In this document: positions 11,042 to 35,143 of the stretch, one piece after another
Numbering within the stretch: the stretch's first letter is position 1
Layout: every line of letters begins with the position of its first letter
DNA from: Actinomycetota bacterium
Lineage (GTDB): Bacteria > Actinomycetota > Aquicultoria > UBA3085 > Oleimmundimicrobiaceae
Direction: 5' to 3'
Length of the DNA stretch: 63,117 bases
Assembly: GCA_011046085.1 (NCBI GenBank)
Contig: DSBK01000051.1
Coordinates: 1 to 63,117, forward strand
Translations under genes and position numbers: made by a program
Notes under the pieces: model-generated
Told to the model about the DNA's origin: nothing
Databases searched by the model: none
What the model saw: the letters and a program-made list of their open reading frames with translations, nothing else

Positions 11042-11226
11042 ACTTTAGCTACTTTGTTGGATTTGACGCATCTGGTGCAAACATTGGTTCTTTTTGTTTT
11101 TCCGTCTACTACTACTCTTTTGTTTTGAATGTTTGCTTTCCAAGTCTTCAGTGTTTTCTTATGTGAGTGACTTACATTTTTCCCAAATTGCGGACCCTTC
11201 CCGCAGACTTCACATTTACTTGACAT
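11038..11226 (-). CDS. rpmB: 50S ribosomal protein L28
   Basis: KCEVCGKGPQFGKNVSHSH...WKAN...VCTRCVKS. Divergent from the Asp23-DAK2 pair, as is commonly conserved. Confidence 0.97.
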   Translation of the reverse strand: MSSKCEVCGKGPQFGKNVSHSHKKTLKTWKANIQNKRVVVDGKTKRTNVCTRCVKSNKVAKV

Positions 11227-11722: not shown

Positions 11723-11738
11723 TCTACGAAAAGAGTTA

Positions 11739-13331: not shown

Positions 13332-13360
13332 AATGACATACGGCAAATAGCTGATGCATG

Positions 13361-13375
13361 CCCGCCTCTGGCGGG
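13361..13375. repeat. GC-rich palindrome CCCGCC-TCT-GGCGGG (REP-like)
   Basis: Perfect 6-bp inverted repeat in an AT-rich intergenic region. Near-copies lie inside the TPP (4383-4395) and FMN (56516-56528) aptamers. Confidence 0.55.
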
Positions 13376-13643
13376 GCTTATAGCACATATAAGGGTAATG
13401 TGTAAAGAAAGGGGAAGGTCATTGCGAGTGGAGCGTGGCAATCTCTGGTTAAAATATAGTGGTATATTAATTGGCTGATGGTCGAAAGGGAGAAGTTTAA
13501 AATTAAAGGTGAAAAATTTTGGGTAGAAGGTATGGGGCATGGAAATCAGCAAACTAATAAATTATCTTAACCGCTCGGAGTTTTAAATTAAGAACAAATA
13601 ATGGCTAAAAACTGATAATCAAAGTGTAAGTGGAGGTAAAAAG

Positions 13644-14489: not shown

Positions 14490-14494
14490 TCTTT

Positions 14495-16792
14495 ATGGTT
14501 GACGAGAAAAGAGCAATTGAGCTTGAAAAAAAACTAGGGATGAACAACATCTCGGTAATAGGTGGTTTTGCGGAATATCTTCAGAGCATAAATTACGATT
14601 TTGTTTGTTCAAGCTCTTATTCAGCCAACGAAGAAGCTAATATCTCAAAGCGTTTCGACAGCCTTCCAAAATTTGATTCTATAAAGATCGACGCTTTTCT
14701 CGATCAGCCAATCGAATCGGCAAAACACGTTGGAAGCATTATGGGTAAGCGATTTAGGCGGTTGGGAATAGATACATTTGAGAATCTTCTCTACCATTTT
14801 CCTCATCGATATTTGAATTTTGCTGAGATAAAAAAGATATCTCAGATTAAGGAAGGTGAGGAGGTTACTGTATTTGGCAAAGTTGTGGATATAAAAAAAT
14901 ATAAGGGTCAAAAGGGAACAAGGGTTTTAAGTGTGGGAATTTTTGATGACACGGGTTACCTTTACGGGACTTGGTTTAATCAGGATTATGTTGTCAAAAA
15001 ATTAAGAGAAGGAATGCAAGTTGCTTTCAGCGGTAAAGTTACTTATAAGTATGGGCTGATACAAATTCAAAATCCATTGTACGATATTTTAAATGAACCA
15101 GATTCTTCTGTCGGTGAAGATGGTTGGCAAAAAGGAGTCCATACTGGCCGGATAATTCCGATACATCCAGCAACTCAAGATTTATCACCCACCTTGATTA
15201 GAAAGGTAATTAAAAACTTGCTAGATAAATTTATAAATATTTCCGATTATATGCCCATCGAAATGAGAAAAAAATTAAAGATCCCCAGTTTGTGTTTTAG
15301 TTTGAAAGAAATACATTTTCCCTCAACGAAAAATACTTTAAATTTAGCCAGGAAGCGGTTGCTTTTTGATGAACTCTTTTTAATGCAGTTGGCTTTAGCT
15401 TTTAAAAAGAAGAGGTTTGAACAAAGCGCAACAGGGATAAAGCATATCATCAGAAAAGAAGAGATCGCTTCTTTTCTCAATCTGCTTCCCTTTAAATTAA
15501 CCAAAGACCAAATAAGGGCAATTGAGGAAATCTGCAAGGATATGGTCAGCCCGCTACCCATGAATCGTTTATTACAGGGTGAGGTTGGTTCGGGAAAAAC
15601 TATTGTAGCTTTAGCAGCATTATTTGCAAGTGTAAAAAGTGGTTATCAGGGTGCGATTATGGCGCCAACGGAGGTTCTTGCAAATCAGCACTTTTGTAAG
15701 ATAAAAGAAATTTTGGATAAGCTTAAAATGGTCTCTGTAAATTTAACTGGCAGCTTGACTTCTAAGAGAAAAAAAGAACTTCAAGATGAAATAAAAAAGG
15801 GAAATATTGATGTTGTCGTCGGCACTCATGCATTAATCCAAGAAGGGGTTGAGTTTAATAATTTGGGATTGGTTGTTGTTGATGAACAGCATCGTTTTGG
15901 AGTTGAGCAAAGGGTAAGGTTGAAGGAGAAGGGTGTTTGTCCAGATTTTTTAATAATGACTGCAACTCCTATACCGAGAACGTTATCTCTAACCTTATAT
16001 GGCGATCTTGATGTGTCAGTAATAAAAGAACGACCAGGAGGGCGGGATTTGTCTGATTATGTTGAAACCTTTGTTTGCGATAATCGGCATCGAAAGAGAG
16101 CATATGAAAAAATTAGAGACGAAATAAAAAATGGAAGGCAAGCCTATGTTGTATGTCCTTTGATTGAAGAGTCGGATAAGCTTGAAGCAAAGGCCGTTAT
16201 GGATGAAGTCGTGCGTTTAAAAAAAGAAATATTTCCCGACTTTGCGGTGGAGGTTATTCATGGGAAAATCAAGACCGCAAACAAGGAAGAGATAATGAAA
16301 GATTTTCGCGCGGGTAAAATTGACATACTAATCTCAACAACCGTGATTGAAGTTGGTATCGATGTTCCCAACGCTTCAGTTATGCTGATCGAAAATGCAG
16401 ATCGATTTGGTCTTTCACAACTTCATCAACTGAGAGGCAGGATAGGTCGCGGAGAACATAAGTCTTATTGCATACTCTTTGCCGACCTTTCTACCGATGA
16501 ATCCAGGGCAAGAATGAAGGCAATAAAAAATATACAAGATGGTTTTAAACTGGCGGAGGCCGATTTACAAATAAGGGGAGAAGGACAACTTTTTGGTACT
16601 CGTCAGTCGGGGCTTCCCGATCTTATGCTTGCCAAATTGACGAGGGATATAGATGTTCTTATTCAAGCCAGAGAAGAAGCTTTCGCTATAATCGAGAAAG
16701 ATCCCGAACTCGCATTATCGATTCACAAACCACTAATGAGGGCAGTTAAAAGAAAATTTTCCAAAAACCTAGATTGGTTATTTTTTAGTTAG
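14495..16792 (+). CDS. recG: ATP-dependent DNA helicase RecG
   Basis: LLQGEVGSGKT, MAPTEVLANQH, DEQHRFGVEQR, MTATPIPRTL and QLHQLRGRIGRG motifs. Confidence 0.97.
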   Translation: MVDEKRAIELEKKLGMNNISVIGGFAEYLQSINYDFVCSSSYSANEEANISKRFDSLPKFDSIKIDAFLDQPIESAKHVGSIMGKRFRRLGIDTFENLLYHFPHRYLNFAEIKKISQIKEGEEVTVFGKVVDIKKYKGQKGTRVLSVGIFDDTGYLYGTWFNQDYVVKKLREGMQVAFSGKVTYKYGLIQIQNPLYDILNEPDSSVGEDGWQKGVHTGRIIPIHPATQDLSPTLIRKVIKNLLDKFINISDYMPIEMRKKLKIPSLCFSLKEIHFPSTKNTLNLARKRLLFDELFLMQLALAFKKKRFEQSATGIKHIIRKEEIASFLNLLPFKLTKDQIRAIEEICKDMVSPLPMNRLLQGEVGSGKTIVALAALFASVKSGYQGAIMAPTEVLANQHFCKIKEILDKLKMVSVNLTGSLTSKRKKELQDEIKKGNIDVVVGTHALIQEGVEFNNLGLVVVDEQHRFGVEQRVRLKEKGVCPDFLIMTATPIPRTLSLTLYGDLDVSVIKERPGGRDLSDYVETFVCDNRHRKRAYEKIRDEIKNGRQAYVVCPLIEESDKLEAKAVMDEVVRLKKEIFPDFAVEVIHGKIKTANKEEIMKDFRAGKIDILISTTVIEVGIDVPNASVMLIENADRFGLSQLHQLRGRIGRGEHKSYCILFADLSTDESRARMKAIKNIQDGFKLAEADLQIRGEGQLFGTRQSGLPDLMLAKLTRDIDVLIQAREEAFAIIEKDPELALSIHKPLMRAVKRKFSKNLDWLFFS

Positions 16793-16843
16793 CCAAAGAT
16801 TAAATTTTAATTTAGTAGTTTTTATAAAATTGAGGCCAAAAAA

Positions 16844-17401
16844 ATGCGCGTTATCGCTGGTGTTGCTAAAGGGCATAAGTTAATATCGCCGAAAGGGTTG
16901 GGAACAAGGCCAACCTCTGACAGAGCAAAAGAGTCAATTTTTAATATAATTGCAGATAAAATTCCTGAAGCAAAAGTTCTTGATTTGTTTGCTGGTTCAG
17001 GAGCTTTCGGGATTGAGGCTTTAAGTAGGGGTGCCCAAACGGCTGTATTTGTTGAAAACAATCAAATAGCGATCGATATAATTTATAAAAATCTTGCTAA
17101 GACTTCTTTGGATAAGAGAGCAGTTGTATTAAAAAAATCGGCGCATAACTTTTTTGTAAATTATACCGACAAGAATGGGCAATATGATTTGATTTTTTTT
17201 GATCCCCCTTATAAAATAAATTACGGTGTGCTAGACTCCTTACTTAAAGAACTTGTGGCAAGAAGAGTATTAAGCGATAATGGTTTGGTAATTTTGGAGC
17301 ACTCATCAAAAGTGTCTCCCGTGGCAATTGAAGTAAATTTAAATTTGAAGTTTACTCGTATATATGGGGATACAAGCGTAAGTTTTTTTGAATTAGTTTG
17401 A
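16844..17401 (+). CDS. rsmD: 16S rRNA m2G966 methyltransferase
   Basis: MRVIAG, TRPTSDRAKESIFN, LDLFAGSG and DPPY motifs. Confidence 0.95.
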   Translation: MRVIAGVAKGHKLISPKGLGTRPTSDRAKESIFNIIADKIPEAKVLDLFAGSGAFGIEALSRGAQTAVFVENNQIAIDIIYKNLAKTSLDKRAVVLKKSAHNFFVNYTDKNGQYDLIFFDPPYKINYGVLDSLLKELVARRVLSDNGLVILEHSSKVSPVAIEVNLNLKFTRIYGDTSVSFFELV

Positions 17402-17411
17402 AGGGAAAATA

Positions 17412-17915
17412 ATGCAGATAGCTGTTTGTCCTGGTAGCTTTGATCCGGTAACCAACGGACATCTTGATATAATTGGAAGAGCGGCACGTTTGTTTGATAA
17501 AGTTGTTGTGGGAGTTTTTGAAAGTATGGACAAAAAACCACTTTTTTCGTTAGAAGAAAGGGTAAAATATATTCAGTTGGCAGTTGAGAAGGATTTAAAA
17601 CTAGATAATGTTGAGGTTGAGTCGTTTGAAACGCTTCTGGTTGAATTTGCGCAAAAACACGGGGCCTCGGCAATAATCAAAGGGTTAAGGGCAGTTTCAG
17701 ATTTTGAGCACGAGTTCCAAATGACTCAGTTTAATCAAAAATTGGATCCAAGTATTGAAACGGTGTTTATGATAGCAAACACACAGTATGGGTATCTAAG
17801 TTCAAGCGCAGTAAAAGAAATTGCAATGTTTGGCGGATGCGTGGAAGGACTCGTTACTTCAGAGGTTAGAGAAGGTTTGAGAAAAGTTTTCCAAGCCAAA
17901 AAAGGAGGACATTAA
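17412..17915 (+). CDS. coaD: Pantetheine-phosphate adenylyltransferase
   Basis: PGSFDPVTNGHLDII, KGLRAVSDFEHE and SSSAVKE motifs. Confidence 0.97.
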   Translation: MQIAVCPGSFDPVTNGHLDIIGRAARLFDKVVVGVFESMDKKPLFSLEERVKYIQLAVEKDLKLDNVEVESFETLLVEFAQKHGASAIIKGLRAVSDFEHEFQMTQFNQKLDPSIETVFMIANTQYGYLSSSAVKEIAMFGGCVEGLVTSEVREGLRKVFQAKKGGH

Positions 17916-17919
17916 GTAG

Positions 17920-18378
17920 ATGGATATAATGACATTAGTTGATAAATTTGAAGATGTTATTGCTACAGCAAAGAGAGTTCCTTTTGGTAATACAATAATG
18001 TTAAGTGAGCAAAAATTATATGATATTATCGATGAAATGCGCTCTGCCTTACCTGACGAATTAAAGCAAGCTCGTTGGATTGTAAAAGAAAGGCAAGAGA
18101 TGTTAAATGAAGCCGAAAAAGAGGCAAATAGAATTATTGAAGAAGCTCGCGAAAATGCTAGCGCGATTGCTTCCGAACAAGAAATCGTTAAAATGGCCGA
18201 ATCTCAAGCAAGCGAGATTGTTGCCAATGCAAAAGAAAAAGAAAGGGAGATTCGTTTGGGAGCCGAAGATTATGCAGATGAAATGCTTGCCAATTTGGAA
18301 GTTAATCTTGGTAAATTACTTTCCGCAGTTCAAAGAGGCAGGGATCGATTACAAGGGAAAATACAGCCCAAATCTTAA
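17920..18378 (+). CDS. DivIVA/SepIVA-like coiled-coil protein
   Basis: Acidic coiled coil (LPDELKQARWIVKERQEML...GAEDYADEML) at the conserved coaD-X-DUF177-rpmF position. Confidence 0.7.
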   Translation: MDIMTLVDKFEDVIATAKRVPFGNTIMLSEQKLYDIIDEMRSALPDELKQARWIVKERQEMLNEAEKEANRIIEEARENASAIASEQEIVKMAESQASEIVANAKEKEREIRLGAEDYADEMLANLEVNLGKLLSAVQRGRDRLQGKIQPKS

Positions 18379-18479: not shown

Positions 18480-19013
18480 TTGAGTGATATGAGCGAATTA
18501 ATTATTAATGTATCTGACATACTTAGAGTTTCGGGCGCGAAGAAAGCGTTTGAACAAAATTGTGAATTTAGGCCACTGCATAACAAAGAAAAGTTGAATT
18601 TTTCTAGCCCGGTTCATTTTAAATTTTCAATTGAGAATATTGGCAACCAGTTGTTTGTGAGGGGGAAAGTTAGCGGAACATTACGTTTAACTTGTTGCCG
18701 TTGTTTAAGAATATTCGATATTGAAGAAGAGGTTTTGCTCGATGAAGTTTTTTTACCGGCAAACATTTTTAAAGAAGTGGAAGAATCTTTTAAAATAATT
18801 AATAATAAAATAGATTTGAGACCAGCAATTGAGCAATCATTTTTATTATGCTTACCCATTAAATCTATTTGTGATGAGAATTGTAAAGGGCTTTGTCCCA
18901 GGTGCGGTAAGAATTTAAATGATGATTATTGTGATTGTCCGAAAAATGAGATTGATTTAAGGTTTTTAAAATTAAAAAGAATTAAAGAAGAACTTGAAAA
19001 AAGGGAAGAGTAA
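18480..19013 (+). CDS. YceD/DUF177 family protein
   Basis: CCRCL, plus PIKSICDENCKGLCPRCGKNLN and CDC motifs. Directly upstream of rpmF. Confidence 0.92.
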   Translation: MSDMSELIINVSDILRVSGAKKAFEQNCEFRPLHNKEKLNFSSPVHFKFSIENIGNQLFVRGKVSGTLRLTCCRCLRIFDIEEEVLLDEVFLPANIFKEVEESFKIINNKIDLRPAIEQSFLLCLPIKSICDENCKGLCPRCGKNLNDDYCDCPKNEIDLRFLKLKRIKEELEKREE

Positions 19014-19213: not shown

Positions 19214-20203
19214 GTGACCCCACCTTCAGTTACGGTTGCAGTTGATGCCATGGGCGGAGATTATGCTCCTAAAGAAATAATAAAAGGGGCTCATCTTGCT
19301 GCCGAGGATAAGGAATTGTCCATAATATTAGTTGGGCAAGAAGAACAAATAAACAACGAATTAAGAAAACTAAGCCCGTGTGCAAATATTCGAGTAAAAC
19401 ACGCACAAGATGTAATTGAGATGGGGGAACATGCTGCAAGGGCTGTAAAGACCAAACAAAGTTCATCGATCTCTATAGCGGCGCAACTTGTGAAAGAGGG
19501 CGAGGCTTGCGCCATGGTGTCTGCGGGAAATTCTGGCGCAACCATGAGTGCGGCGATGTTGAAAATCGGAAGGATTAAGGGGGTTTTAAGACCAGCGATA
19601 GCCGTTATAATTCCCACCTTAAGTAAGCCAACTGTTCTTTTAGATGCGGGAGCAAATGCAGAGTGCAAGCCGAAAAATCTATATCAGTTTGCAGTAATGG
19701 GGAAAGCTTATGCGACAAAGGTTTTGGATATCAAATCACCAAAAATTGGGTTATTAAATGTGGGGGAAGAACGCGGGAAAGGCGGAGAACTATTACAGAA
19801 ATCATACGAACTTATGGGATCGATCGAAGGTTTTGTCGGCAACATTGAAGGAAACGATATTCCCAGCGGTAAGGTTGATGTAGTTGTTTGTGATGGCTTT
19901 GTTGGAAATGTTGCGCTTAAATTAATGGAAGGCTTGGCGTCAACATTTTTTTCCCAGATTAAAGTTGTGGTTAAATCTTCGTTTATAAAAATAATTGGAG
20001 GAGTGTTGCTTGCCTCATCCTTTAGGAAATTAAAGAGCGAGCTTGATCATGAAGAATATGGCGGAGCCCATCTGCTTGGAATAAATGGTGTTTGTGTAAT
20101 TGGTCATGGAAGATCCAACGCTAAGGCTGTTAAAAATGCAATTATGGTGGCAAAAAGGGCTGTTTTGGAAAATATTGTTTCGGAAATAAGTGGTGGGATT
20201 TAG
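19214..20203 (+). CDS. plsX: Phosphate acyltransferase PlsX
   Basis: AVDAMGGDYAP, SAGNSGA, RPAIA, LDAGAN, VVVCDGFVGNVALK and GHGRS motifs. Confidence 0.96.
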   Translation: MTPPSVTVAVDAMGGDYAPKEIIKGAHLAAEDKELSIILVGQEEQINNELRKLSPCANIRVKHAQDVIEMGEHAARAVKTKQSSSISIAAQLVKEGEACAMVSAGNSGATMSAAMLKIGRIKGVLRPAIAVIIPTLSKPTVLLDAGANAECKPKNLYQFAVMGKAYATKVLDIKSPKIGLLNVGEERGKGGELLQKSYELMGSIEGFVGNIEGNDIPSGKVDVVVCDGFVGNVALKLMEGLASTFFSQIKVVVKSSFIKIIGGVLLASSFRKLKSELDHEEYGGAHLLGINGVCVIGHGRSNAKAVKNAIMVAKRAVLENIVSEISGGI

Positions 20204-21226
20204 GTGAAAACAATTTTAAAGAAAGAAACGTTTGCAGGAATAATCGGAATAGGTTCTCATCTCCCCAGCAAAACGTTAACCAATTTTGATTTGGAAAAAA
20301 TTGTAGATACAAGCGATAAGTGGATAAAAACAAGGACGGGTATATCAGAACGAAGAATTATAGATGACAATACGGGCCTTTCTGATTTAGCCGTTTCGGC
20401 TAGTAAGAAAGCTTTATTTGACGCGGGTTTGGAAATTACGGATATCGATTTAATAATCTTGTCAACCTGCTCGCCCGAAATGGTGATGCCCTCAACTGCT
20501 TGTCTTGTTCAACAAAAACTAGGTGCGAAAACTATTCCTGCTTTTGATATATCCGCTGGTTGCACAGGATTTATATATGCCGTTGCCATTGGGGCTCAAT
20601 TTATTGAGACCGGTTGTTATAAAAAGGTTTTGGTAATTGGAGCAGACGCTCTTTCCAAGCACCTTGACTGGACCGATCGTGGCACATGTGTTTTGTTTGG
20701 AGATGGCGCGGGCGCGGTAGTTCTTGGGGTCGTAGAGCAGGGCTATGGCATCCTTTCAAATTATCTGGCGGCAACTGGCGCGGGGGCTAATCTTTTGAAA
20801 ATTCCAGCTGGAGGATCAGGCTTGCCCGCCACAAAAGATTCTTTTGTAAAGAAACTTCACTGTGTTCAAATGAACGGAAATGAGGTTTTTAAGTTTGCTG
20901 TTAGAGCTCTACCGCAAGCGACAAATGCCGCTCTAAGAAAAGCTAATTTAACGGTGGATGACGTTGATTACTTTATTCCTCATCAGGCCAATATTAGGAT
21001 TCTTGAAACCGCGGCTAGAAAATTGGGGGTTGGCTTTGATAAAATCGTCAACAATATCGACAAATATGGCAATACATCAACCGCCTCGATACCGGTTGCC
21101 CTAGATGAGCTTTGGCAAAGCGGCGTGATAAAAAAAGGGGACGTTATGCTTTTGGTTGGGTTCGGAGCGGGCCTAACCTGGGGAGCCAACGTAATCAAAT
21201 GGAGCAAAACGACTTCGTCGAATTGA
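20204..21226 (+). CDS. fabH: Beta-ketoacyl-ACP synthase III
   Basis: Catalytic triad contexts AGCTGF, PHQAN and YGNTS, plus LFGDGAGA and GFGAGLTWG. Confidence 0.96.
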   Translation: MKTILKKETFAGIIGIGSHLPSKTLTNFDLEKIVDTSDKWIKTRTGISERRIIDDNTGLSDLAVSASKKALFDAGLEITDIDLIILSTCSPEMVMPSTACLVQQKLGAKTIPAFDISAGCTGFIYAVAIGAQFIETGCYKKVLVIGADALSKHLDWTDRGTCVLFGDGAGAVVLGVVEQGYGILSNYLAATGAGANLLKIPAGGSGLPATKDSFVKKLHCVQMNGNEVFKFAVRALPQATNAALRKANLTVDDVDYFIPHQANIRILETAARKLGVGFDKIVNNIDKYGNTSTASIPVALDELWQSGVIKKGDVMLLVGFGAGLTWGANVIKWSKTTSSN

Positions 21227-21311
21227 AGATTGAAGATTGAAGATTTTATGGTTTTTCAAAGAAATAAATAAGTTTCAATCGAAAATTTAATATTTAAAAT
21301 TTTCATTTTCC
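21223..21311. repeat. Heptamer-periodic repeat pair: (TTGAAGA)x3 followed by a degenerate inverted heptamer run
   Basis: TTGAAGA x3 at 21223-21243. TTCAATC GAAAATT TAATATT TAAAATT TTCATTT at 21274-21308. Confidence 0.6.
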
Positions 21312-21340
21312 AACAAAGAATTTAGAAGGGGGTCGATTCT

Positions 21341-22498
21341 TTGAATTACATGTTAACTGACGACCAAAAGATGATAAAGGAATTAGCTAAAAAAATATCT
21401 GACGAGAAAGTAATTCCTGTTCGAGCCGAGCTTGACGAAAAAGAGGAGTTTCCTTGGGAAGTTATTAAAGCTTTATCGCAGGCTGATTTATTTGGTCTTT
21501 ATATACCCGAAGAATATGGTGGTATGGGCTTCGGGTGCTTTGAGACAGTTCTTGTCGTAGAGGAGTTAAGCAGAGCTTGCTGCGGGGTATCTGTAAGCTA
21601 TGCTGCCAGTGCTCTGGGGGCGTATCCCATAGTTCTATTTGGTCACGAGGAGCAAAAAAAGAAATATCTTCCGGCCATTGCTTCCGGCGAAAAACTTGCA
21701 GCCTTTGGTCTCACGGAAGCAAATGCGGGGAGCGATGCTTCGGGTATTCAAACTACCGCCAAAAGAGACGGAAATCACTATGTTTTGAATGGGACAAAGC
21801 AATGGATAACAAATGGTGGTGAAGCTGAAATTTATGCCGTGATAGCCATAACGGATCGAAATAAAGGAAGTCGCGGGGCCTCGGCGTTTGTAATCGAGAA
21901 AGGAACGGAAGGATTTTCTTTTGGGAAAAAAGAAAAGAAAATGGGGATAAGGTCCTCCGCAACCAGGGAACTTGTCTTTGACAATTGCAGGATTCCTAAA
22001 GAGAATTTAATTGGCCGAGAAGGAATGGGCTTTATTGTTGCCTTAAAAACATTGGACATAACACGGCCCGGGATTGGGGCGCAAGGGGTGGGTCTTGCTC
22101 AGGGAGCTTTAGATGTCGCTTTAAATTACTCGCGGCAGCGGACGCAGTTTGGCCAAACAATATCATCCTTTCAAGCTATACAGCATATTTTGGCTGATAT
22201 GGCCATCCAGACCGAAGCGGCTCGCGCATTAGTCTATGCCACTGCCAGAATGATCGATGGTGGGGAAAAGACTTTTTCCAAAGACTCTGCAATCGCAAAG
22301 ACTTTTGCTACCGATGTAGCCATGAAGGTTTCTGTCGATGCTGTTCAAATACTTGGTGGCTATGGTTATATGAGGGAATATCCCGTTGAAAAAATGATGC
22401 GTGATGCAAAAATTCTTCAAATTTACGAAGGAACAAATCAGATACAAAGAAATGTAATTGCTCTTCAACTAATTAAAGAGAACTCTGGCAAAAACTGA
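21341..22498 (+). CDS. Acyl-CoA dehydrogenase, butyryl-CoA dehydrogenase (Bcd)-like
   Basis: FGLTEANAGSDA, GTKQWITNG, KMGIRSSAT, RTQFG, QILGGYGY and catalytic IYEGTNQIQR motifs. Confidence 0.93.
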   Translation: MNYMLTDDQKMIKELAKKISDEKVIPVRAELDEKEEFPWEVIKALSQADLFGLYIPEEYGGMGFGCFETVLVVEELSRACCGVSVSYAASALGAYPIVLFGHEEQKKKYLPAIASGEKLAAFGLTEANAGSDASGIQTTAKRDGNHYVLNGTKQWITNGGEAEIYAVIAITDRNKGSRGASAFVIEKGTEGFSFGKKEKKMGIRSSATRELVFDNCRIPKENLIGREGMGFIVALKTLDITRPGIGAQGVGLAQGALDVALNYSRQRTQFGQTISSFQAIQHILADMAIQTEAARALVYATARMIDGGEKTFSKDSAIAKTFATDVAMKVSVDAVQILGGYGYMREYPVEKMMRDAKILQIYEGTNQIQRNVIALQLIKENSGKN

Positions 22499-22514
22499 TA
22501 ATTGGGGGATTATT

Positions 22515-23303
22515 TTGAATATTATCGTTTGCATTAAACAAGTTCCTGCTACAACGGAGATAAAGATAGATCCGGCAACAAATACGCTTGTAAGAGAGGG
22601 AACAGAAAGTATAGTCAACCCATTTGATGTTTATGCGCTGGAAGAAGCAATCAGGATAAAAGAGGAGTTTGGCGGGAAAGTCACCGCAATAACTATGGGG
22701 CCGCCTCATGCCGCAGAGGCATTAAAAGAAGCGATTGCCGTGGGTGCCGATGATGTAATTTTGCTTTCAGATAGGGCTTTCGCTGGGGCGGATACTCTCG
22801 CAACTTCACATACCTTGTCAAAAGGAATAGAAAAGCTTGGGGATTTTGATCTCATAATTTGCGGAAAACAGACGATGGATGGCGATACAGCGCAAGTTGG
22901 ACCTGAAATTGCTGAAAAACTGGGAGTACCAATTGTAACTTATGTAAGCCAGATTAAAAAGATAGAAGATGGACACATCCAATTGCAGCGCATGGTTGAA
23001 GATGGTTATGAAGTGGTTGAAACAGAAAAACCCTTGGTTATCACCGTTGTAAAGGAAATAAATGAACCAAGAGTGCCTTCACTACGTGGCATGATGAGAG
23101 CGAAAAAAGCCGAGATACCGGTCTGGACGGCCAAAGATATAAATGCTGAGGAAGAGAAAATTGGGTTATTGGGTTCGCCGACTCAGGTTGTAACAATTTT
23201 CGTTCCCGAAGTTTCAAGAAAAGGCGAAAGGTTCGAGGGCGAAGCGGACAAAATCGTTGAACAACTGATCGGCAAATTGAAGGAAGACAAGGTATTGAAT
23301 TGA
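22515..23303 (+). CDS. etfB: Electron transfer flavoprotein beta subunit
   Basis: VCIKQVP, NPFDVYALEEA, DRAFAGADTLAT, GKQTMDGDTAQVGP and NEPRVPS motifs. Confidence 0.95.
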   Translation: MNIIVCIKQVPATTEIKIDPATNTLVREGTESIVNPFDVYALEEAIRIKEEFGGKVTAITMGPPHAAEALKEAIAVGADDVILLSDRAFAGADTLATSHTLSKGIEKLGDFDLIICGKQTMDGDTAQVGPEIAEKLGVPIVTYVSQIKKIEDGHIQLQRMVEDGYEVVETEKPLVITVVKEINEPRVPSLRGMMRAKKAEIPVWTAKDINAEEEKIGLLGSPTQVVTIFVPEVSRKGERFEGEADKIVEQLIGKLKEDKVLN

Positions 23304-23333
23304 CCTTATTTTACGTTTGTTGGGGGTTTTTGT

Positions 23334-24524
23334 TTGAGCATAAAAATTGATTTAAGCAAATGTACGGGTTGCAAGCTTTGCAAGAAAGCATGTATGTACA
23401 ATGCAATCGATATTGTTGAAAAAAAGGCATATGTGAACGATAAATGTACCTTATGCGCTGCGTGCGTCTCAGTTTGCAAATATGAAGCTATTTTTATAAA
23501 GAAAGAGAATAAGCCCATTTTAAATTTATCTGAATATAAGGGTGTCTGGGTCTTTGCCGAGCAGAGGCGGGGCGAGTTGGCTGGTGTTGTTTTTGAACTG
23601 CTTGGCGAAGGGCGCAAATTGGCCAAAGATCTTAAGGTTGAGCTTTCCGTTGTTTTGCTTGGAGAAAATATAAGCAATTTGGCCGATGAACTTATATATT
23701 GTGGAGCTGATAGAGTTTATTTGGTTGATGATCCCATTCTGAAGGATTGTTTAGAGGATGTTTATTCTAATACTCTTGTTCGAATGATTGAGAAGTATAA
23801 GCCGGAAATCGTTCTCGCGGGAGCCACCTCTTTTGGTCGCTCCTTAATTCCTAAAGTTGCAGCAATTTTGGAGACTGGTCTTACCGCCGACTGTACGGGT
23901 TTAGATATTGATAAAGAAAACAGATTATTGTTGCAAACGCGACCCGCTTTTGGCGGAAATATTATGGCAACGATTATATGTCCGAACAGGCGGCCACAAA
24001 TGGCTACTGTGAGGCCAAAGGTGATGAAGAGGGCTCAAAGGGATAAAAAGAGAGTGAAAGAAATAGTTAAGGAAACCGTATCAAAATCTATGGTATCCAG
24101 AGTAAAATTACTCGATTTTATCGAGGATTTATCCGAGAAGATTAACTTAGAGGAAGCGGAAATTATTGTTGCAGGTGGGCGAGGTTTGGGAAAAGAAGAA
24201 AATTTTAAGATGATGGAAGAATTGGCCTTATCGTTGAATGCAGCAATTGGCGCTTCAAGGGCGGCGGTTGACGCAGGGTGGATATCTTATTCACATCAAA
24301 TTGGGCAGACAGGTAAAACGGTTTGCCCAAAACTGTACATCGCTTGCGGGATTTCCGGAGCAATTCAACATCTTGCTGGCATGCAGACTTCCGATTGCAT
24401 TGTTGCCATCAACAAGGATCCCAACGCTCCGATTTTCGACGTTGCCAATTATGGGGTGGTGGGTGATTTGTTCGAAATTGTTCCCATGATTACAGCAAAA
24501 CTTAAGCAGCGTAACGGGGGTTAA
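23334..24524 (+). CDS. etfA: Electron transfer flavoprotein alpha subunit with N-terminal 2x[4Fe-4S] ferredoxin domain
   Basis: CTGCKLCKKAC and CTLCAACVSVC at the N-terminus, then GLTADCT, RPAFGG, ASRAAVD, QIGQTGKTV and GISGAIQH. Confidence 0.95.
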   Translation: MSIKIDLSKCTGCKLCKKACMYNAIDIVEKKAYVNDKCTLCAACVSVCKYEAIFIKKENKPILNLSEYKGVWVFAEQRRGELAGVVFELLGEGRKLAKDLKVELSVVLLGENISNLADELIYCGADRVYLVDDPILKDCLEDVYSNTLVRMIEKYKPEIVLAGATSFGRSLIPKVAAILETGLTADCTGLDIDKENRLLLQTRPAFGGNIMATIICPNRRPQMATVRPKVMKRAQRDKKRVKEIVKETVSKSMVSRVKLLDFIEDLSEKINLEEAEIIVAGGRGLGKEENFKMMEELALSLNAAIGASRAAVDAGWISYSHQIGQTGKTVCPKLYIACGISGAIQHLAGMQTSDCIVAINKDPNAPIFDVANYGVVGDLFEIVPMITAKLKQRNGG

Positions 24525-24527
24525 TTC

Positions 24528-25469
24528 TTGGAGAAAAAAATTGCTTTTGTTTTTCCCGGTCAAGGTTCCCAATATGTTGGGATGGGTCAAAATTTAAAAG
24601 AATCAATGGAAGAAATCAGCGTAATCTTTGAAAAAGCCGATGAAATTTTACAAAGGCAGATTTCGGACATCTGTTTTAAGGGACCTAAAGGCGAGTTAGA
24701 TAAGACAATAAATACCCAACCCGCAATTTTTGTAGTAAATTATGCCTGTTATAGAGCGTTGTGTTCAGAGGGAATAGAGCCGGACATAGTAGCCGGACAT
24801 AGTCTTGGAGAGTATAATGCTTTGGTTGCTGCCGGGGTATTGGACTTTGAGACAGGGTTGCGGTTAATTGAAAAAAGAGCATATCTTATGGAAAAAATTG
24901 CATCGAATAATCCGAGCAAAATGATCGCAGTTCTTGGGTTAAGCTCAAAAGAAGTTGATGAAGTGATAAATTTATTAAAAGTAAAAGGAATAATCAATGG
25001 CGCAAATTATAATTGCCCAGGTCAAATTGTAGTTTCAGGAGAAAATTTAATCATCGATGAGGCCATACAACTTTTTAAGCAATCTGGCGCAAAGAGGGTT
25101 GTTGAGCTTCCTGTAAATGGTGGATTTCACTCTAACTTAATGGGAGAGGCAGAAGATGAATTTTCTAAATTTTTAAAAGATGTTTCATTTAAAAAGGCGA
25201 AATGTGGAGTTGTCTCCAATTTTAGCGGCAAATTTTCGACAAATCCAATGGAGTTAAAGACGGCTTTAAATAGGCAGATTACAAGTTCGGTTCGATGGGA
25301 AGAGTCGGTTAACGAAATTTGCTCTTTTGGAGCGAAAATATTTGTTGAGGTTGGACCGAAAAAAATCTTATCGGGACTTGTTTCTAGGATAGTTCCAGAT
25401 GTAGCGCAATTAAACGTGGAAGATGTCGGCACTTTAAAGAAAACTGTTTTTTCGATAAGGAGAGGTTAG
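24528..25469 (+). CDS. fabD: Malonyl-CoA:ACP transacylase
   Basis: FPGQGSQ, TQPAI, GHSLGEY, ANYNCPGQIV, GGFHS and EVGP motifs. Confidence 0.96.
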   Translation: MEKKIAFVFPGQGSQYVGMGQNLKESMEEISVIFEKADEILQRQISDICFKGPKGELDKTINTQPAIFVVNYACYRALCSEGIEPDIVAGHSLGEYNALVAAGVLDFETGLRLIEKRAYLMEKIASNNPSKMIAVLGLSSKEVDEVINLLKVKGIINGANYNCPGQIVVSGENLIIDEAIQLFKQSGAKRVVELPVNGGFHSNLMGEAEDEFSKFLKDVSFKKAKCGVVSNFSGKFSTNPMELKTALNRQITSSVRWEESVNEICSFGAKIFVEVGPKKILSGLVSRIVPDVAQLNVEDVGTLKKTVFSIRRG

Positions 25470-25470: not shown

Positions 25471-26214
25471 ATGAATTTTGAGAATAAGGTTGCACTTGTA
25501 ACAGGGAGCGCGCGTGGGATAGGAAGAGAAATTTGCTTAAAGTTCGCTGAGCTTGGTGTGGATATAATTGTAAACGATATAGCGAACGAGGATGCAGCCA
25601 ATGAGCTCGTTTCTATAATTGAAAATATGGGAAGAAGAGCGGTGTTCATTAAAGCTAACATTGCAGTTTCCAAAGAAGCGGTAATGTTAATTGAGCAAAG
25701 TATTGATAAATTAGGCGGAGTGGATATATTGGTAAATAATGCTGGAATAACGCGCGATAATCTTTTAATTCGAATGAAAGAAGAAGAATGGGATGCTGTT
25801 ATAAGTATAAATTTGAAGGGAACATTTAATTGCATCCAGGCCGTGTCTCGCCACATGATAAAAAAACGTTATGGCGCAATTGTAAATATTGCTTCGGTTG
25901 TGGGTGTATCCGGAAACCCCGGTCAAGCAAATTACTCAGCTTCTAAAGCTGGGGTAATCGGTTTAACAAAGACTGTTGCAAAAGAGCTTTCATCGCGAGG
26001 AATAAGGGTTAATGCTGTTGCCCCAGGTTTTATTCAGACTGAGATGACAAAAAAATTACCCGAAGATGTAAAAGCAAAAGTAATAGAAAGTGTCCCTCTT
26101 GGCAAATTTGGTACACCGAAAGATGTTGCAAATCTGGTTGCTTTTTTGGCATCGGACGAGGCTGCTTATATTACTGGGCAGGTTGTTAATGTCGATGGTG
26201 GAATGGTAATGTAG
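25471..26214 (+). CDS. fabG: 3-oxoacyl-ACP reductase
   Basis: TGSARGIG, NNAGITRD, YSASKAG and NAVAPGFI SDR motifs, in the fabD-fabG-acpP order. Confidence 0.96.
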   Translation: MNFENKVALVTGSARGIGREICLKFAELGVDIIVNDIANEDAANELVSIIENMGRRAVFIKANIAVSKEAVMLIEQSIDKLGGVDILVNNAGITRDNLLIRMKEEEWDAVISINLKGTFNCIQAVSRHMIKKRYGAIVNIASVVGVSGNPGQANYSASKAGVIGLTKTVAKELSSRGIRVNAVAPGFIQTEMTKKLPEDVKAKVIESVPLGKFGTPKDVANLVAFLASDEAAYITGQVVNVDGGMVM

Positions 26215-26267: not shown

Positions 26268-26501
26268 ATGTCGAACGAAAATTTTGACAAGGTCAAAAAA
26301 ATTATTATTGAGCAATTGGGGGTAGATGAGTCTGCCGTAAAGTCTGAGACATCTTTCATAAATGATCTCGGAGCGGATTCCTTGGATATTGTTGAGTTAA
26401 TAATGGCAATTGAAGAGGAGTTTGGTTTGGAAATATCAGATGAAGACGCAGAGACAATAACAACCGTGGGCCAAGCTGTCGAGTATATTGAAAACAAATA
26501 A
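26268..26501 (+). CDS. acpP: Acyl carrier protein
   Basis: [12 protein letters not shown] phosphopantetheine site in an acidic 77-aa protein. Confidence 0.97.
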
Positions 26502-26522: not shown

Positions 26523-27509
26523 ATGAGTTTACCGGAGTTAACAATCTGCAATTTAAAATCATCCTTGCCAATTATTCAAGGAGGGATGGGTGTACGTATA
26601 TCTCTTGCCCCTTTGGCAGCCGCTGTGGCCAATGAGGGTGGCATAGGACTGATAGCCGCCTCTGGGGTTCATCCTCCAGAGCTTGCTGAACACATAAGGA
26701 AGGCGAAAGAACTAACCGATGGCATAGTGGGAATAAATATTATGGTTGCGGTCAGAGAATTTAAAGAGCTTATATTAACCGCGATACAAGAGAAAATCGA
26801 TTTAATTGTTGCCGGTGCTGGTTTTTCCAGGGACATTTTTCAACTGGGGAAGGAACATAATGTTCCCATCGTTCCCATTGTGTCTTCGGATCGCGTTGCT
26901 CGTCTCGCCGAGAAATTTGGCGCATCAGCTGTTATTGTTGAAGGGAAGGAAGCTGGTGGACATCTTGGGACGGATAGGCCTCTTTTTTCGATTTTGCCAG
27001 AAATAATTAAAGCTGTGCAAATACCTGTAATTGCTGCTGGAGGAATTCTTAAGGGCTCAGATATTGTAAAAGCTCTTTTCATGGGAGCCAAAGGTGTTCA
27101 AATGGGCACCCGCTTTGCTGCCAGCGAGGAGAGCAGCGCCGCGCCTGCCTGGAAAGAAGAATATGTGAAGGCAAAAGCGGAAGATGTTGTATTGATTAAA
27201 AGTCCCGTTGGTTTACCTGGGCAAGCTCTTAACACATCTTTTGTCAGGGATTTATTTGCAAACAAAGTGCCTGCATTTAAAGACATTAAAAGGTGTGTTG
27301 CTTGTTTGAAGCATTGTAAAAAAGATTTCTGCATCATAGAAGCACTTGAGAATGCCCAGCAAGGAAACATAGAAAAAGGTCTTATTTTTTGCGGTGAACG
27401 TGTGGGAGAAATTAAAGACATTCTTTCAGTAAAAGAAATCATCGCAAATCTCATAAAAGAGTTCAAAGAAAGTGTGGCCAACGGAGGAAGAGAATGGAAA
27501 GAAGGGTAG
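26523..27509 (+). CDS. Nitronate monooxygenase-family flavoenzyme (FabK/FabX-like) with C-terminal Cys cluster
   Basis: [22 protein letters not shown] and VQMGTRF motifs, plus [13 protein letters not shown]. Lies between acpP and fabF. Confidence 0.85.
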
Positions 27510-28732
27510 TTATTACCGGTCTTGGGCCGATTGCTCCCGTTGGGATAGGGAAGGAAGCTTTCTGGAAGTCTTTGGCTGAAGGAAAATCGGGAATTGGAAA
27601 AATTACATGTTTCGATACAGAAGGTTTCGGTTCGCGTATCGCAGGGGAAGTTGATGAATTTAATCCAAATGACTATTTGGAAGCAAAAGAGGCACGAAGG
27701 ATGGATAGATTCAGCCAGTTTGCTGTGGCTTCCGCAAAACTAGCTCTCGAAGATGCAAATTTAAACATAACCGACTCTATTGCTGAACGAGTTGCGGTTA
27801 TCGTTGGCTCAGGTATCGGCGGGCTAAAAACCCTGGAGGATCAACATAGAATTTTAATCGAAAAAGGGCCTCAAAAAATTAGCCCTTTTCTCGTTCCCAT
27901 GATGATAACCGATTTAGCGGCAGGCAATATCTCAATTTTTTTTGGAGCTAAGGGCCCAAATTTTTGCACCGTGACCGCTTGTGCCTCCTCTACTCATGCA
28001 ATCGGAGAGGCCTTTGAAGTTATAAAACGAGGTGCAGCTGATATTTGTATTGCAGGCGGAGCGGAAGCGCCCATAACTCCTTTAGGTATCGCAGGTTTTT
28101 GCGCGGCTCGCGCTCTTTCAACCAGGAATGATGAGCCAGAAAAAGCAAGTCGGCCATTTGACGCAAAAAGAGATGGTTTTGTAATTTCCGAAGGTGCTGG
28201 AATAGTAATTTTAGAGACATTGGAAAGCGCCATAAACAGAGATGCCCATATCTATGCGGAGATTGTGGGATATGGAGCCACGGGAGATGCTTATCATATC
28301 ACTGCTCCTGCTCCAGATGGAGAGGGGGCGGCTCGTGCGATGAGAGAAGCCATCGAAGAATCCGGAATGGATTACAAACAAGTAGATTATATAAATGCTC
28401 ATGGAACCTCAACGTTGTTGAACGATGAGTTTGAGACATTGGCCATAAAGAAGGTTTTTGGTGAACACGCTTATAGCTTAACTGTTAGTTCAACCAAATC
28501 CATGACTGGCCACGCTTTGGGAGCAGCTGGCGGTATAGAGATGATTGCGTGCGCTCTTTCCATTGAAAAAGGTGTTATCCCTCCAACCATTAATTACGAG
28601 TACCCTGATCCCAAATGCGACTTGAATTATGTCCCAAATAAAGCGATTGAGAAGAAGGTTATGGTAGCAATGTCCAATTCTTTAGGTTTCGGTGGTCACA
28701 ATGCTAGCATAATGATAAGAAAGATCGGGTAA
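27494..28732 (+). CDS. fabF: Beta-ketoacyl-ACP synthase II
   Basis: [23 protein letters not shown] and NSLGFGGHN (Cys-His-His triad). Confidence 0.97.
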
Positions 28733-28904: not shown

Positions 28905-29609
28905 ATGCTTATAAAAGACACCGTAGGTAAAGCTGAGAAATATTTGGGCCTCACTTTTTTTAACAAGGTTCTGCTTAAGATGGCGTTAACTCACAGATCG
29001 GTTATTTCTGAATTGCCCGAGGGAGCTGAATCAAATGAGCGTTTGGAATTTTTAGGCGACGCTGTCCTAGAATTTGTAATAACAGACTATTTGTATAATC
29101 ATTATCCAGATCTTGAGGAAGGTGATTTGGCGATGCTTCGGGCAAACATTGTAAACTCCGAAGTGTTGGCAAAAATAGCACGAAATATTCATCTGGGCGA
29201 ATGTATTTTAATGGGGAAAGGGGCTGAAGTCACAGGCGGGAGAGAGCAAGTTTCAATTTTAGCGGACTGTTTGGAAGCTATTTTAGGGGCTGCATGTTTA
29301 GATCAAGATATTAAAAAGACCGAAGAGTTTGTTCTGGGCCTTTTTCTAGAAGAAATCCACGAACAGGCATCGAGAGAAAAATATTTGGATTTAAAAACGA
29401 GTCTTCAAGAACACACCATGAAAAAATTGAAAATGTTGCCTTCGTATAAGATAGTCCGAGAAGAAGGACCTGTTCACGATAAGATCTTTTTTGCGGAAGT
29501 TTATATTGGGGATAAGGTTTGGGGTAAAGGAAGGGGCAAAAGTAAAAAGAGAGCTGAACAGCAAGCAGCAAAAATAGCCTTGCAAGAACTCCAAAAATTG
29601 CACAGTTAA
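28905..29609 (+). CDS. rnc: Ribonuclease III
   Basis: NERLEFLGDAVL signature, and dsRBD with KTSLQE and GKSKKRAEQQAA. Confidence 0.97.
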   Translation: MLIKDTVGKAEKYLGLTFFNKVLLKMALTHRSVISELPEGAESNERLEFLGDAVLEFVITDYLYNHYPDLEEGDLAMLRANIVNSEVLAKIARNIHLGECILMGKGAEVTGGREQVSILADCLEAILGAACLDQDIKKTEEFVLGLFLEEIHEQASREKYLDLKTSLQEHTMKKLKMLPSYKIVREEGPVHDKIFFAEVYIGDKVWGKGRGKSKKRAEQQAAKIALQELQKLHS

Positions 29610-29735
29610 TCTTTTTATTAATTAACAAAAAAGTATTTAAAAACTTATCATTGTTGAGTTAATATAAATATAATATAAAATTAAAAAAGTATTGTCGGGG
29701 GCAATGCTTTTATTGTTCAAAGGAGAGGTGAAAAT

Positions 29736-30464
29736 ATGGAGACTCCAAAGATTGCAATAGGCAACGGTTTTGCATTTACAAATGCTCAAGAGCTTTCGAA
29801 CTGGGCCAATCTTGCAATCGATTGGAATTTAAATCCATATCGATTGCCCCTACTCAAAGACGAGGTGGCTGCTCTTTTAAAAATGGCAAAAACTCGACGG
29901 GGGGATATTGAAATTAGATTTTGTTGCTCCGATCCGAAGATAGACATATCGCATCAAGATGAAAGATTGAGTGATATGTCGGAAAAGATTTTACAATCTT
30001 GCATCGAATATATAGGAGAAATGGGTGGAGGTTATTTTACAATTGGTCTTCATTTTATTTCTCAAGACTCGTGGGAACAAGTCACAAAAAAATTAAAAAA
30101 ATTGGTCGATTGTGGGAACAAAAATGGGGTTGTTGTTTGTGTTGAAAATATATCGTCAGGACCTTTATCTGAACCGAAGCGATTTAAAGAATTATTGGAT
30201 AAAACGGGAGCCATGGTGACATTCGGGTTATTTAATGGCGAGAGCTCATCTGAGTTTTTAGATCTTTTAAAAATGGTCTCCGATAGAATCGTAAACGCTC
30301 ATCTTCATAACCGTACTTTTTCAAAAGATTCCTTAAAAGATATTTTAGATGCCTTGTTGGAGACGGGGTGTTCATGGTGGAGCGTGGACTTGAGCGGGAT
30401 CGATGAAGTAAAGTCTTCGAGGGAGTTGCTTGGCCGTTTTTTGAAAGAAAAAGGTTACGCTTAA
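29736..30464 (+). CDS. Xylose isomerase-like TIM barrel protein with degenerate metal site
   Basis: VVVCVEN and IVNAHLH segments recall the sugar-phosphate isomerase/AP-endonuclease-2 barrel. Strong RBS GGAGAGGTG. Confidence 0.55.
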   Translation: METPKIAIGNGFAFTNAQELSNWANLAIDWNLNPYRLPLLKDEVAALLKMAKTRRGDIEIRFCCSDPKIDISHQDERLSDMSEKILQSCIEYIGEMGGGYFTIGLHFISQDSWEQVTKKLKKLVDCGNKNGVVVCVENISSGPLSEPKRFKELLDKTGAMVTFGLFNGESSSEFLDLLKMVSDRIVNAHLHNRTFSKDSLKDILDALLETGCSWWSVDLSGIDEVKSSRELLGRFLKEKGYA

Positions 30465-30521
30465 AGTTTTTTAAACATATTCATGTTTCATAAAGAAAAT
30501 ACGGCAAGTAATTTTACTTTA

Positions 30522-30548
30522 AAAAGACCGCGGCAAAAGCGGTCTTTT
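30522..30548. terminator. Intrinsic terminator (bidirectional shape)
   Basis: AAAAGACCGC-GGCAAAA-GCGGTCTTTT perfect 10-bp inverted repeat. Confidence 0.8.
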
Positions 30549-30647
30549 GCATATTATTTTCCAAAGTTCAGCATCTCTAAAATTTATTCACCCCTTATTG
30601 TAACTGTGATAAAATATTTCGGGGTTTTAAAGGAGGATTTTTGACTT

Positions 30648-35105: not shown

Positions 35106-35114
35106 CAAACAAGT

Positions 35115-35143
35115 TTGAAAGTCATTTTATCCTTTTGTAATAT
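35115..35143 (+). promoter_or_regulatory. Putative sigma70-type promoter of ffh
   Basis: TTGAAA, 17-nt spacer, TAATAT. Confidence 0.5.

Follow-up and report, generated by a model that had tools for sequence, protein, structure and literature searches.

Introduction

The described systems closest to the one considered here are two electron-bifurcating complexes and one flavin-dependent reductase. The caffeyl-CoA reductase-Etf complex CarCDE of Acetobacterium woodii (6FAH), which serves phenylacrylate respiration, consists of an acyl-CoA dehydrogenase (ACAD), EtfB and EtfA, encoded in that order, and its EtfA carries an N-terminal ferredoxin domain with two clusters. The butyryl-CoA dehydrogenase complexes Bcd-EtfAB (C. 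difficile 5OL2; A. fermentans 4L1F/4KPU) likewise join an ACAD to a bifurcating EtfAB. FabK, the FMN-dependent enoyl-ACP (acyl carrier protein) reductase II (TIGR03151), uses NADH directly and conserves no energy. Here, we describe an ACAD-etfB-etfA block embedded in the type II fatty-acid synthesis (fab) operon of an Actinomycetota bacterium (contig DSBK01000051.1 of assembly GCA_011046085.1; the 63,117-nt stretch analyzed is called the window hereafter), and we suggest, with modest confidence, that ACAD-EtfB-EtfA is the enoyl-ACP reductase of this fatty-acid synthase and has replaced FabK.

Among the steps of bacterial fatty-acid synthesis, enoyl-ACP reduction varies the most, and it is a major target of antibiotics (triclosan, isoniazid, afabicin). 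ACAD-fold enzymes acting on carrier-protein-bound thioesters are known, namely MbtN, the prolyl-ACP dehydrogenase 4IRN and TcsD (6CXT), but they are oxidative and belong to secondary metabolism, whereas the activity proposed here would be reductive and part of primary fatty-acid synthesis. They are also distant from the window ACAD, with 91 bits for the MbtN model and 210–226 bits for 4IRN and 6CXT. In the survey of bifurcating enzymes by Poudel et al. (2018), Bf-Bcd is found only in Firmicutes, Fusobacteria and Bacteroidetes, and acyl carrier protein is not mentioned. An earlier, sequence-only reading of this DNA knew of no described system with such an arrangement; likewise, our search of full-text literature, which did not extend to subscription-only papers, turned up no account of an ACAD/Etf module in type II fatty-acid synthesis. 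A Car/Bcd-type bifurcating complex recruited to this pathway would be a candidate new class of enoyl-ACP reductase, seemingly undescribed.

Gene Order and the Position of FabK

Could an ACAD and its Etf partners take the place of a dedicated enoyl-ACP reductase? In the window, the plus-strand order rpmF-plsX-fabH-[ACAD-etfB-etfA]-fabD-fabG-acpP-NMO-fabF given in the sequence-only reading was confirmed by the open reading frames (ORFs) and domain matches (Table 1). The intergenic gaps are exactly the 16 nt (ACAD-etfB), 30 nt (etfB-etfA) and 3 nt (etfA-fabD) stated there, and a site search of the window agreed that no terminator interrupts the block, as no terminator-like hairpin was found between fabH and fabD. 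Since the junctions are tight, co-transcription of ACAD-etfB-etfA with the fab genes of the window is likely.

The main evidence for a reductase role comes from the slot between fabH and fabD. Five clusters containing an NMO-family gene of the same four-cysteine type as the one in the window were read (Heliomicrobium modesticaldum, Anaerospora, an Anaerolineae metagenome-assembled genome (MAG), a Ca. Aquicultorales MAG and an Actinobacteria MAG), and all are collinear with the window in the order yceD-rpmF-(fapR)-plsX-fabH-[X]-fabD-fabG-acpP-[four-cysteine NMO]-fabF-rnc-smc. At X, each of the five encodes a second NMO protein, which scores above the FabK cut-off (488–506 bits versus 453). Four clusters, namely the window, L001, L007 and L057 (Margulisiibacteriota), have ACAD-etfB-etfA at this position. 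A scan of metagenomes with the four-cysteine NMO alignment yielded 38 further clusters with a visible slot, in which FabK-like proteins were called by phmmer with the Heliomicrobium FabK as the query; the slot contained a FabK-like protein in 36 of them, nothing in two and an ACAD in none. Altogether, FabK or a FabK-like protein occupies the slot in 41 clusters and ACAD-etfBA in four, and the two occur together in none. The same division is seen within Ca. Aquicultoria, where FabK fills the slot in the Aquicultorales and ACAD-EtfBA fills it in the Subteraquimicrobiales relatives of the window.

Judged from gene order, an unrelated module has taken over the place of a known enoyl-ACP reductase, and this is the strongest functional evidence presented here. 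FabK and the block share the operon position and the proposed pathway step, but the folds are unrelated: FabK is a TIM-barrel FMN enzyme, whereas the module comprises an ACAD plus Etf, three FADs and two [4Fe-4S] clusters. Slot occupancy thus favors the earlier model in which the complex acts as an enoyl-ACP reductase, except that the enzyme displaced is FabK and not, as had been supposed, FabI.

The ACAD, EtfB and EtfA Proteins

The ACAD has all three Acyl-CoA_dh domains (Pfam N, M and C) and a catalytic glutamate, E363, within YEGTNQIQ, which is conserved in 81 of the 85 clade members. Its score falls under every NCBIfam equivalog cut-off, those of models for CoA substrates included; the top match is AcrC (acryloyl-CoA reductase), at 454 bits versus 640. 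The closest PDB structure is C. difficile Bcd (5ol2_C, 426 bits), followed by 4l1f_A (398 bits), and CarC reaches only 320 bits, so in its dehydrogenase the module differs from CarCDE and is nearer to Bcd. The catalytic glutamate and the FAD domains are conserved with Bcd-EtfAB, but the identity is ~55%, compared with 68–82% within the clade of the window ACAD.

EtfB scores 244–260 bits against the bifurcating CarD, LctB, A. fermentans EtfB and C. difficile EtfB (260 bits to CarD), compared with 82–92 bits against non-bifurcating ETF-beta. Its DGDTAQVG segment is identical in all four bifurcating EtfB structures, and a motif of this type is reportedly diagnostic of bifurcating Etf. EtfA starts with a ferredoxin domain for 2×[4Fe-4S] (aa 1–60, nt 23334–23513; Fer4 matches at aa 3–59), in which the cluster cysteines C10/13/16/20 and C38/41/44/48 form two CxxCxxCxxxC motifs, and its C-terminal FAD domain matches PF00766 at 131 bits. 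The full length of EtfA, ferredoxin domain included, matches CarE (6fah_A) at 441 bits; the Bcd-EtfAB complexes, on the other hand, lack this domain. In the relatives, the neighboring Etf genes show the same features, with DGDT[AG]QVG in 48 of 49 EtfBs and the two cluster motifs in 44 of 46 EtfAs. By these scores and motifs, ACAD-etfB-etfA is a predicted Car/Bcd-type bifurcating complex with the gene order of carCDE, and the original assignment of a Bcd-EtfAB-type bifurcating module within the fab operon is supported by the EtfB and EtfA scores, the motifs and the ferredoxin domain. Three features go beyond that assignment, namely the ferredoxin domain of EtfA, the 114-nt spacer upstream of ACAD and the non-FabK nature of the NMO protein.

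Both butyryl-CoA dehydrogenase structures (5ol2_C and 4l1f_A) carry one extra residue in the helix-E region; the ACAD lacks this insertion, which, from the M. elsdenii and MCAD structures, is said to shorten the acyl pocket. In a by-eye alignment with an MCAD sequence, the positions of MCAD Gln95 and Glu99 would correspond to Ser84 and Ala88 in the window ACAD; as a lead, such small residues would fit a deeper acyl pocket. Pathway context suggests that the substrate carrier would be ACP instead of CoA. The net charge of the ACAD clade, −2 compared with −5 to −15 for the references, is the only hint in the protein itself toward the use of ACP.

Pathway Genes Absent from the Neighborhood

The window was searched by phmmer (E ≤ 1e-4) with E. 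coli FabI, FabZ, FadA (thiolase) and FadB (crotonase/3-hydroxyacyl-CoA dehydrogenase) as the queries. No homologue of any of the four, and no true FabK, was found in the 63-kb window. With the E. coli queries, there was also no thiolase, crotonase/3-hydroxyacyl-CoA dehydrogenase, FabI or FabZ in 86 related loci (~1.4 Mb), so that the absence of fabI, fabZ and the usual Bcd partners (thiolase, hbd and crotonase), first noticed for the cluster, extends to the whole window and to all of these loci. For the butyrate/crotonyl-CoA pathway, then, the partner genes are absent, the ACAD falls short of the equivalog cut-off and the pocket insertion is missing; in lacking these neighbors and the insertion, the clade differs from Bcd-EtfAB. 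A further reductase or dehydratase family hidden in the clusters was also considered and rejected: clustering of 220 unassigned ORFs returned only known flanking genes, including rpiB, glyA, a dCMP deaminase and coaD.

Distribution and Linkage to fab Genes

Two surveys were made with the window ACAD. The first, a search of 5.8 billion proteins, returned ACADs 73–82% identical in MAGs named Actinomycetota, Nitrospirota, Deltaproteobacteria, Bacillota and Bacteroidota. The second, limited to one genome per species, returned 80 loci in which the ACAD is 68–77% identical to that of the window. These loci were read as ±10 kb flanks, the six-frame ORFs being annotated with the window's own proteins, and a locus was called fab-adjacent if the ACAD or the ACAD-etf block lay ≤1.5 kb from a fab gene.

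The results show that 46 of the 79 classified loci are fab-adjacent, with L055, a partial ACAD match, as the likely 47th. Adjacency is complete in Thermodesulfobacteriota/Deltaproteobacteria (14/14), Actinomycetota (2/2), Omnitrophota (3/3) and, with one locus each (1/1), Margulisiibacteriota, Saganbacteria, Edwardsbacteria, Rokubacteria, Ratteibacteria and Pseudomonadota; it is found in 14 of 35 Nitrospirota loci and in none of 10 from Bacillota. The linkage thus recurs in at least nine phylum-level lineages and at several insertion points, and the possibility of an arrangement found in this genome alone, which would have counted against the original idea, is set aside.

The nearest named relative, Candidatus Oleimmundimicrobium (Actinomycetota, Ca. 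Aquicultoria), has an ACAD 80% identical to that of the window and the same gene order, which is also that of the actinobacterial neighborhood. A digester Firmicute has the order ACAD-etfB-etfA-yceD-rpmF-fapR-plsX-fabH-fabD-fabG-acpP-fabF, and a Desulfobacterales MAG has yceD-rpmF-plsX-ACAD-etfB-etfA-fabD-fabG-acpP-fabF. Depending on the lineage, the insertion point is fabH|fabD, plsX|fabD, after fabF or rnc, or before yceD. Because it differs between lineages, the linkage to fab genes appears to have been kept through repeated rearrangement. The junctions in the relatives are tight, with 18 nt from fabH or plsX to ACAD and 3–9 nt from etfA to fabD.

Some loci depart from the compact arrangement. 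Nitrospirota L008, L009, L040 and L061 carry insertions of several kilobases, which separate either ACAD from etfB or etfA from fabD. In L019, L024, L028 and L058, ACAD-etfB-etfA-fabD forms a bare four-gene unit apart from the remaining fab cluster.

In a neighbor-joining tree with Bcd references and two actinobacterial ACAD references, the ACADs follow taxonomy, fab-linked and unlinked members are intermixed, and a long branch leads to the Bcd and actinobacterial ACAD references. A tree that follows taxonomy indicates an old orthologous group and not a recently spread island. Furthermore, the clade is unusually well conserved, at 68–82% identity across phyla. The median self-score kept across phyla is 73% for ACAD, compared with 34–59% for PlsX, FabH, FabD, FabG, AcpP and FabF of the same loci, although the ACAD figure is biased upward because the loci were picked by ACAD similarity.

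The Four-Cysteine NMO Gene

The NMO gene between acpP and fabF had been labeled FabK-like, and it was considered here as a candidate for the FabK of the cluster. That candidate was rejected. The protein scores 214 bits and its orthologues 175–215 bits against the FabK equivalog TIGR03151 (cut-off 453), compared with the 488–506 bits of the true FabKs of the same clusters. Moreover, its motif C258-x2-C261-x3-C265-x4-C270 is foreign to FabK, being absent from the T. maritima, C. difficile and P. gingivalis structures. The label therefore does not hold by score, and it is the C-terminal part that is FabX-like.

With H. pylori FabX (decanoyl-ACP dehydrogenase/isomerase, 7E1Q), the protein shares the NMO-family TIM barrel and the catalytic GGH histidine, and its cysteine-rich C-terminal part aligns with the [4Fe-4S] subdomain of that enzyme: the C-terminal 107 residues match FabX (7e1q) best, with E = 2e-10, compared with 7e-5 or worse for FabK. 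Three of the four cysteines align with FabX C304, C308 and C320, which are [4Fe-4S] ligands (numbering from PMC8626469), and the fourth lies at a different position. The spacing also differs, C-x3-C-x3-C-x11-C in FabX versus C-x2-C-x3-C-x4-C here, and the barrel is nearer to T. maritima FabK.

The four-cysteine motif is kept in the three related ACAD-type clusters, and all four cysteines are invariant in 44 homologues. Homologues with 60–65% identity are found in cultured Heliobacteria and Negativicutes as well as in MAGs of Anaerolineae, Ca. Aquicultorales and other actinobacteria. In these groups and in many metagenome contigs from gut and digester (L091–L095 and L096–L175), the gene lies between acpP and fabF, usually together with a true FabK. 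Among the ACAD loci, however, only 3 of 86 contain it, as befits an accessory gene. The protein may be the anaerobic unsaturated-fatty-acid enzyme of these groups, or else a ferredoxin-linked reductase.

The Locus and Its Surroundings

The coordinates of the cluster are listed in Table 1. The reading frame of rpmF differs from the longest ORF at the same position, and yceD lies upstream of the cluster in most of the related loci. The AP_endonuc_2 gene has no counterpart detected in related clusters outside this contig.

Table 1. Features of the fab cluster in the window.
Feature	Position	Strand	Basis or remark
yceD (DUF177)	18489..19013	+	PF02620 on called gene; conserved first gene of rpmF-plsX-fab cluster
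rpmF, ribosomal protein L32, 59 aa	19029..19208	+	PF01783; translation of correct frame
plsX, phosphate acyltransferase	19214..20203	+	TIGR00182 363.7 bits, cut-off 243.4
fabH, beta-ketoacyl-ACP synthase III	20204..21226	+	TIGR00747 426.6 bits, cut-off 292.1
fabH-ACAD spacer, 114 nt, AT-rich	21227..21340	+	sequence
ACAD, acyl-CoA-dehydrogenase-family flavoprotein, 385 aa	21341..22498	+	three ACAD Pfam domains
etfB, small subunit, bifurcating type	22515..23303	+	bit scores to bifurcating EtfB structures; motif GKQTMDGDTAQVG
etfA, large subunit	23334..24524	+	Fer4, ETF and ETF_alpha Pfam matches; CarE 6fah_A match
fabD, malonyl-CoA:ACP transacylase	24528..25469	+	TIGR00128 321.5 bits, cut-off 260.9
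fabG, 3-oxoacyl-ACP reductase	25471..26214	+	TIGR01830 344.8 bits, cut-off 297.75
acpP, acyl carrier protein	26268..26501	+	TIGR00517 112.5 bits, cut-off 70.45
NMO-family flavoprotein, four-cysteine	26523..27509	+	FabK model 214 bits, cut-off 453
fabF, beta-ketoacyl-ACP synthase II	27494..28732	+	ketoacyl-synt and Ketoacyl-synt_C; 16-nt overlap with NMO gene
rnc (RNase III)	28905..29609	+	Ribonuclease_3 and dsrm domains; conserved downstream neighbor of cluster
AP_endonuc_2 gene (xylose-isomerase-like TIM barrel), 242 aa	29736-30464		between rnc and smc

The spacer between fabH and ACAD opens with a perfect tandem repeat of TTGAAGA (×3, 21223–21243) that overlaps the fabH stop codon, and a ribosome-binding site, GAAGGGGG, lies 7 nt upstream of the TTG start of ACAD. 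The spacer showed no significant fold (z = −0.43), no Rfam match and no strong promoter match; a regulatory RNA or terminator at this place was rejected, as the terminator, fold and Rfam searches were all empty. In the nearest relative, L001, the junction is 18 nt, compared with 114 nt in the window, and because it is so short the repeat is probably absent there.

The flanks (11366–18378 and 28905–36518) have a gene order typical of Firmicutes, though the closest relatives are deep-branching Actinomycetota. On the left, asp23, fakA, degV, recG, rsmD and coaD precede yceD-rpmF-plsX; on the right is rnc-smc, and the two ORFs downstream of smc are presumably ftsY and ffh. The fatty-acid kinase pair of fakA (11739–13331) and degV (13644–14489) suggests the uptake of external fatty acids. 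A contig identical to that of the window is present in run SRR7787775.

Alternative Explanations

Several observations weigh against the assignment of the block as the enoyl-ACP reductase. The reading covered ±10 kb around each locus, and a FabI, FabV, FabL or FabK encoded elsewhere in the genomes may account for all of the enoyl-ACP reduction. In some organisms, the four-cysteine NMO may also act as a reductase: two metagenome clusters, L108 and L155, have it with neither FabK nor ACAD between fabH and fabD, and their reductase is the NMO protein or the product of a gene located elsewhere. The 114-nt spacer before ACAD could hold an internal promoter. The closest characterized relatives of the ACAD all act on CoA esters, and a search for an ACP-docking signature, by sequence comparison without coordinates, gave ten clade-specific conserved residues that show no clear basic patch. 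In 18 of the fab-adjacent loci, the ACAD stands without neighboring etf genes, and there is no fab adjacency in 10 of 10 Bacillota and 20 of 35 Nitrospirota loci. Finally, in Nitrospirota L035, a lone ACAD (10001–11155) with no Etf beside it lies ~3 kb from SCO1 and heme-copper oxidase subunit I (14190–16593); because of this neighbor, the clade is evidently not confined to strict anaerobes.

How well, then, do other explanations account for the data? In the one that survives best, which we nevertheless consider unlikely, the ACAD reduces enoyl-ACP and the Etf merely relays electrons from NADH or reduced ferredoxin, with no net reduction of ferredoxin. All of the context evidence for a reductase fits this equally, the 18 loci without etf beside the ACAD agree with it, and AcrC of Clostridium propionicum, the best NCBIfam match, is reportedly non-bifurcating. 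However, EtfB bears the full bifurcating signature and nearly all of the relatives' EtfAs (44/46) have the CarE-type ferredoxin domain, which, according to the 6FAH work on CarCDE, is the exit path of the low-potential electron.

It is improbable that the block has no direct role in fatty-acid synthesis and is a housekeeping redox or CoA-ester enzyme that came to lie near rpmF-plsX-fab through shared regulation or hitch-hiking. Such a role would agree with the 32 of 79 loci that have no fab gene within 10 kb and with the unlinked copies, whose neighbors are unrelated housekeeping genes (such as those for arginine, folate and aromatic amino-acid biosynthesis and for a peptidyl-prolyl isomerase). 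It is at odds with linkage at four insertion points in at least nine lineages, with the mutual exclusion of the block and FabK in the same slot and with junctions to fab genes of only 3–18 nt.

An enzyme of primer supply, that is, an ordinary short-chain enoyl-CoA reductase making butyryl-CoA or branched acyl-CoA for FabH, was another of the earlier models. The nearest solved structures are indeed butyryl-CoA dehydrogenases (5ol2_C, 426 bits; 4l1f_A, 398 bits), and in the window the ACAD gene directly follows fabH. In many clusters, however, the ACAD lies by plsX or fabF with no adjacent fabH (e.g., L005, L015, L050, L063 and L066), and neither the window nor the 86 loci encode a thiolase, 3-hydroxyacyl-CoA dehydrogenase or crotonase to make crotonyl-CoA. 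The clade also lacks the Bcd-type one-residue insertion and falls below all CoA-specific NCBIfam equivalog cut-offs, and branched primers would be oxidized by an ACAD, not produced. We therefore regard this explanation as hardly probable.

The remaining model, desaturation by backtracking, in which the ACAD oxidizes acyl-ACP to trans-2-enoyl-ACP for cis-3 isomerization in the manner of FabX and the Etf removes the electrons, possibly with the FabX-like NMO, is very improbable. In its favor, the reaction of an ACAD can run in either direction, four genes downstream lies a FabX-like NMO with four cysteines and, to our knowledge, no anaerobic route to unsaturated fatty acids has been established in many of these lineages, but the Etf is of the NADH-linked (NADH-oxidizing) bifurcating type, for which the reverse run would cost ~ +40 kJ/mol, trans-2-enoyl-ACP is already produced in every cycle, most ACAD-type clusters have no NMO (3 of 86 loci have one), and the four-cysteine NMO occupies the same position in 41 FabK-type clusters without Etf, which indicates that it does not depend on Etf.

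Proposed Mechanism and Significance

A tentative extension of the enoyl-ACP reductase assignment, which we hold with somewhat less than even confidence, is that the module is both an enoyl-ACP reductase and bifurcating. By analogy with Bcd-EtfAB and CarCDE, the ACAD, EtfB and ferredoxin-domain EtfA would form a CarCDE/Bcd-EtfAB-like complex that runs in the reductive direction and reduces ferredoxin. NADH would reduce the bifurcating FAD in EtfB, from which one electron would pass via the FAD of EtfA to the dehydrogenase FAD; after two such rounds, the dehydrogenase FAD would reduce trans-2-enoyl-ACP to acyl-ACP, with Glu363 as the proton relay. The low-potential electron would travel through the two [4Fe-4S] clusters of the N-terminal domain of EtfA to ferredoxin. 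The net reaction would be enoyl-ACP + 2 NADH + Fd(ox) → acyl-ACP + 2 NAD+ + Fd(red), with one reduced ferredoxin returned per elongation cycle, so that the ~300 mV between NADH and the enoyl thioester would not be wasted.

The standard potentials are approximately −320 mV for NADH, −10 mV for the enoyl/acyl thioester pair and −420 mV for ferredoxin. Calculated from these values, the forward reaction yields ~ −40 kJ/mol and the reverse costs ~ +40 kJ/mol, and because of this cost an oxidative role is unlikely. The proposed complex would differ from CarCDE in its pathway, lying in a fab operon and acting on an ACP thioester.

Taken across the surveys, it is possible, and no more firmly held than bifurcation itself, that these genes represent a widespread, vertically inherited and unrecognized class of enoyl-ACP reductase, built from an ACAD and a bifurcating, ferredoxin-domain Etf and recovering one Fd(red) per cycle. 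As part of the same reading, this class would stand in for FabK or FabI in lineages that include Thermodesulfobacteriota, Nitrospirota, anaerobic Actinomycetota (Aquicultoria), Omnitrophota and Margulisiibacteriota.

If this is true, the ACAD-Etf reductase would be mechanistically unrelated to FabI, FabK, FabL and FabV, and flavin-based electron bifurcation would, for the first time, be seen to serve a pathway of core biosynthesis instead of catabolism. The annotation of thousands of "acyl-CoA dehydrogenase" and "butyryl-CoA dehydrogenase" genes in subsurface, sediment and digester genomes would be corrected; the current labels imply a butyrate or beta-oxidation metabolism that may not exist. 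For the organisms themselves, energy-starved anaerobes would recover ~7 reduced ferredoxins per palmitate, and through Rnf or Ech this ferredoxin could repay part of the cost of making a membrane. Membrane-lipid synthesis would then be partly energy-conserving.

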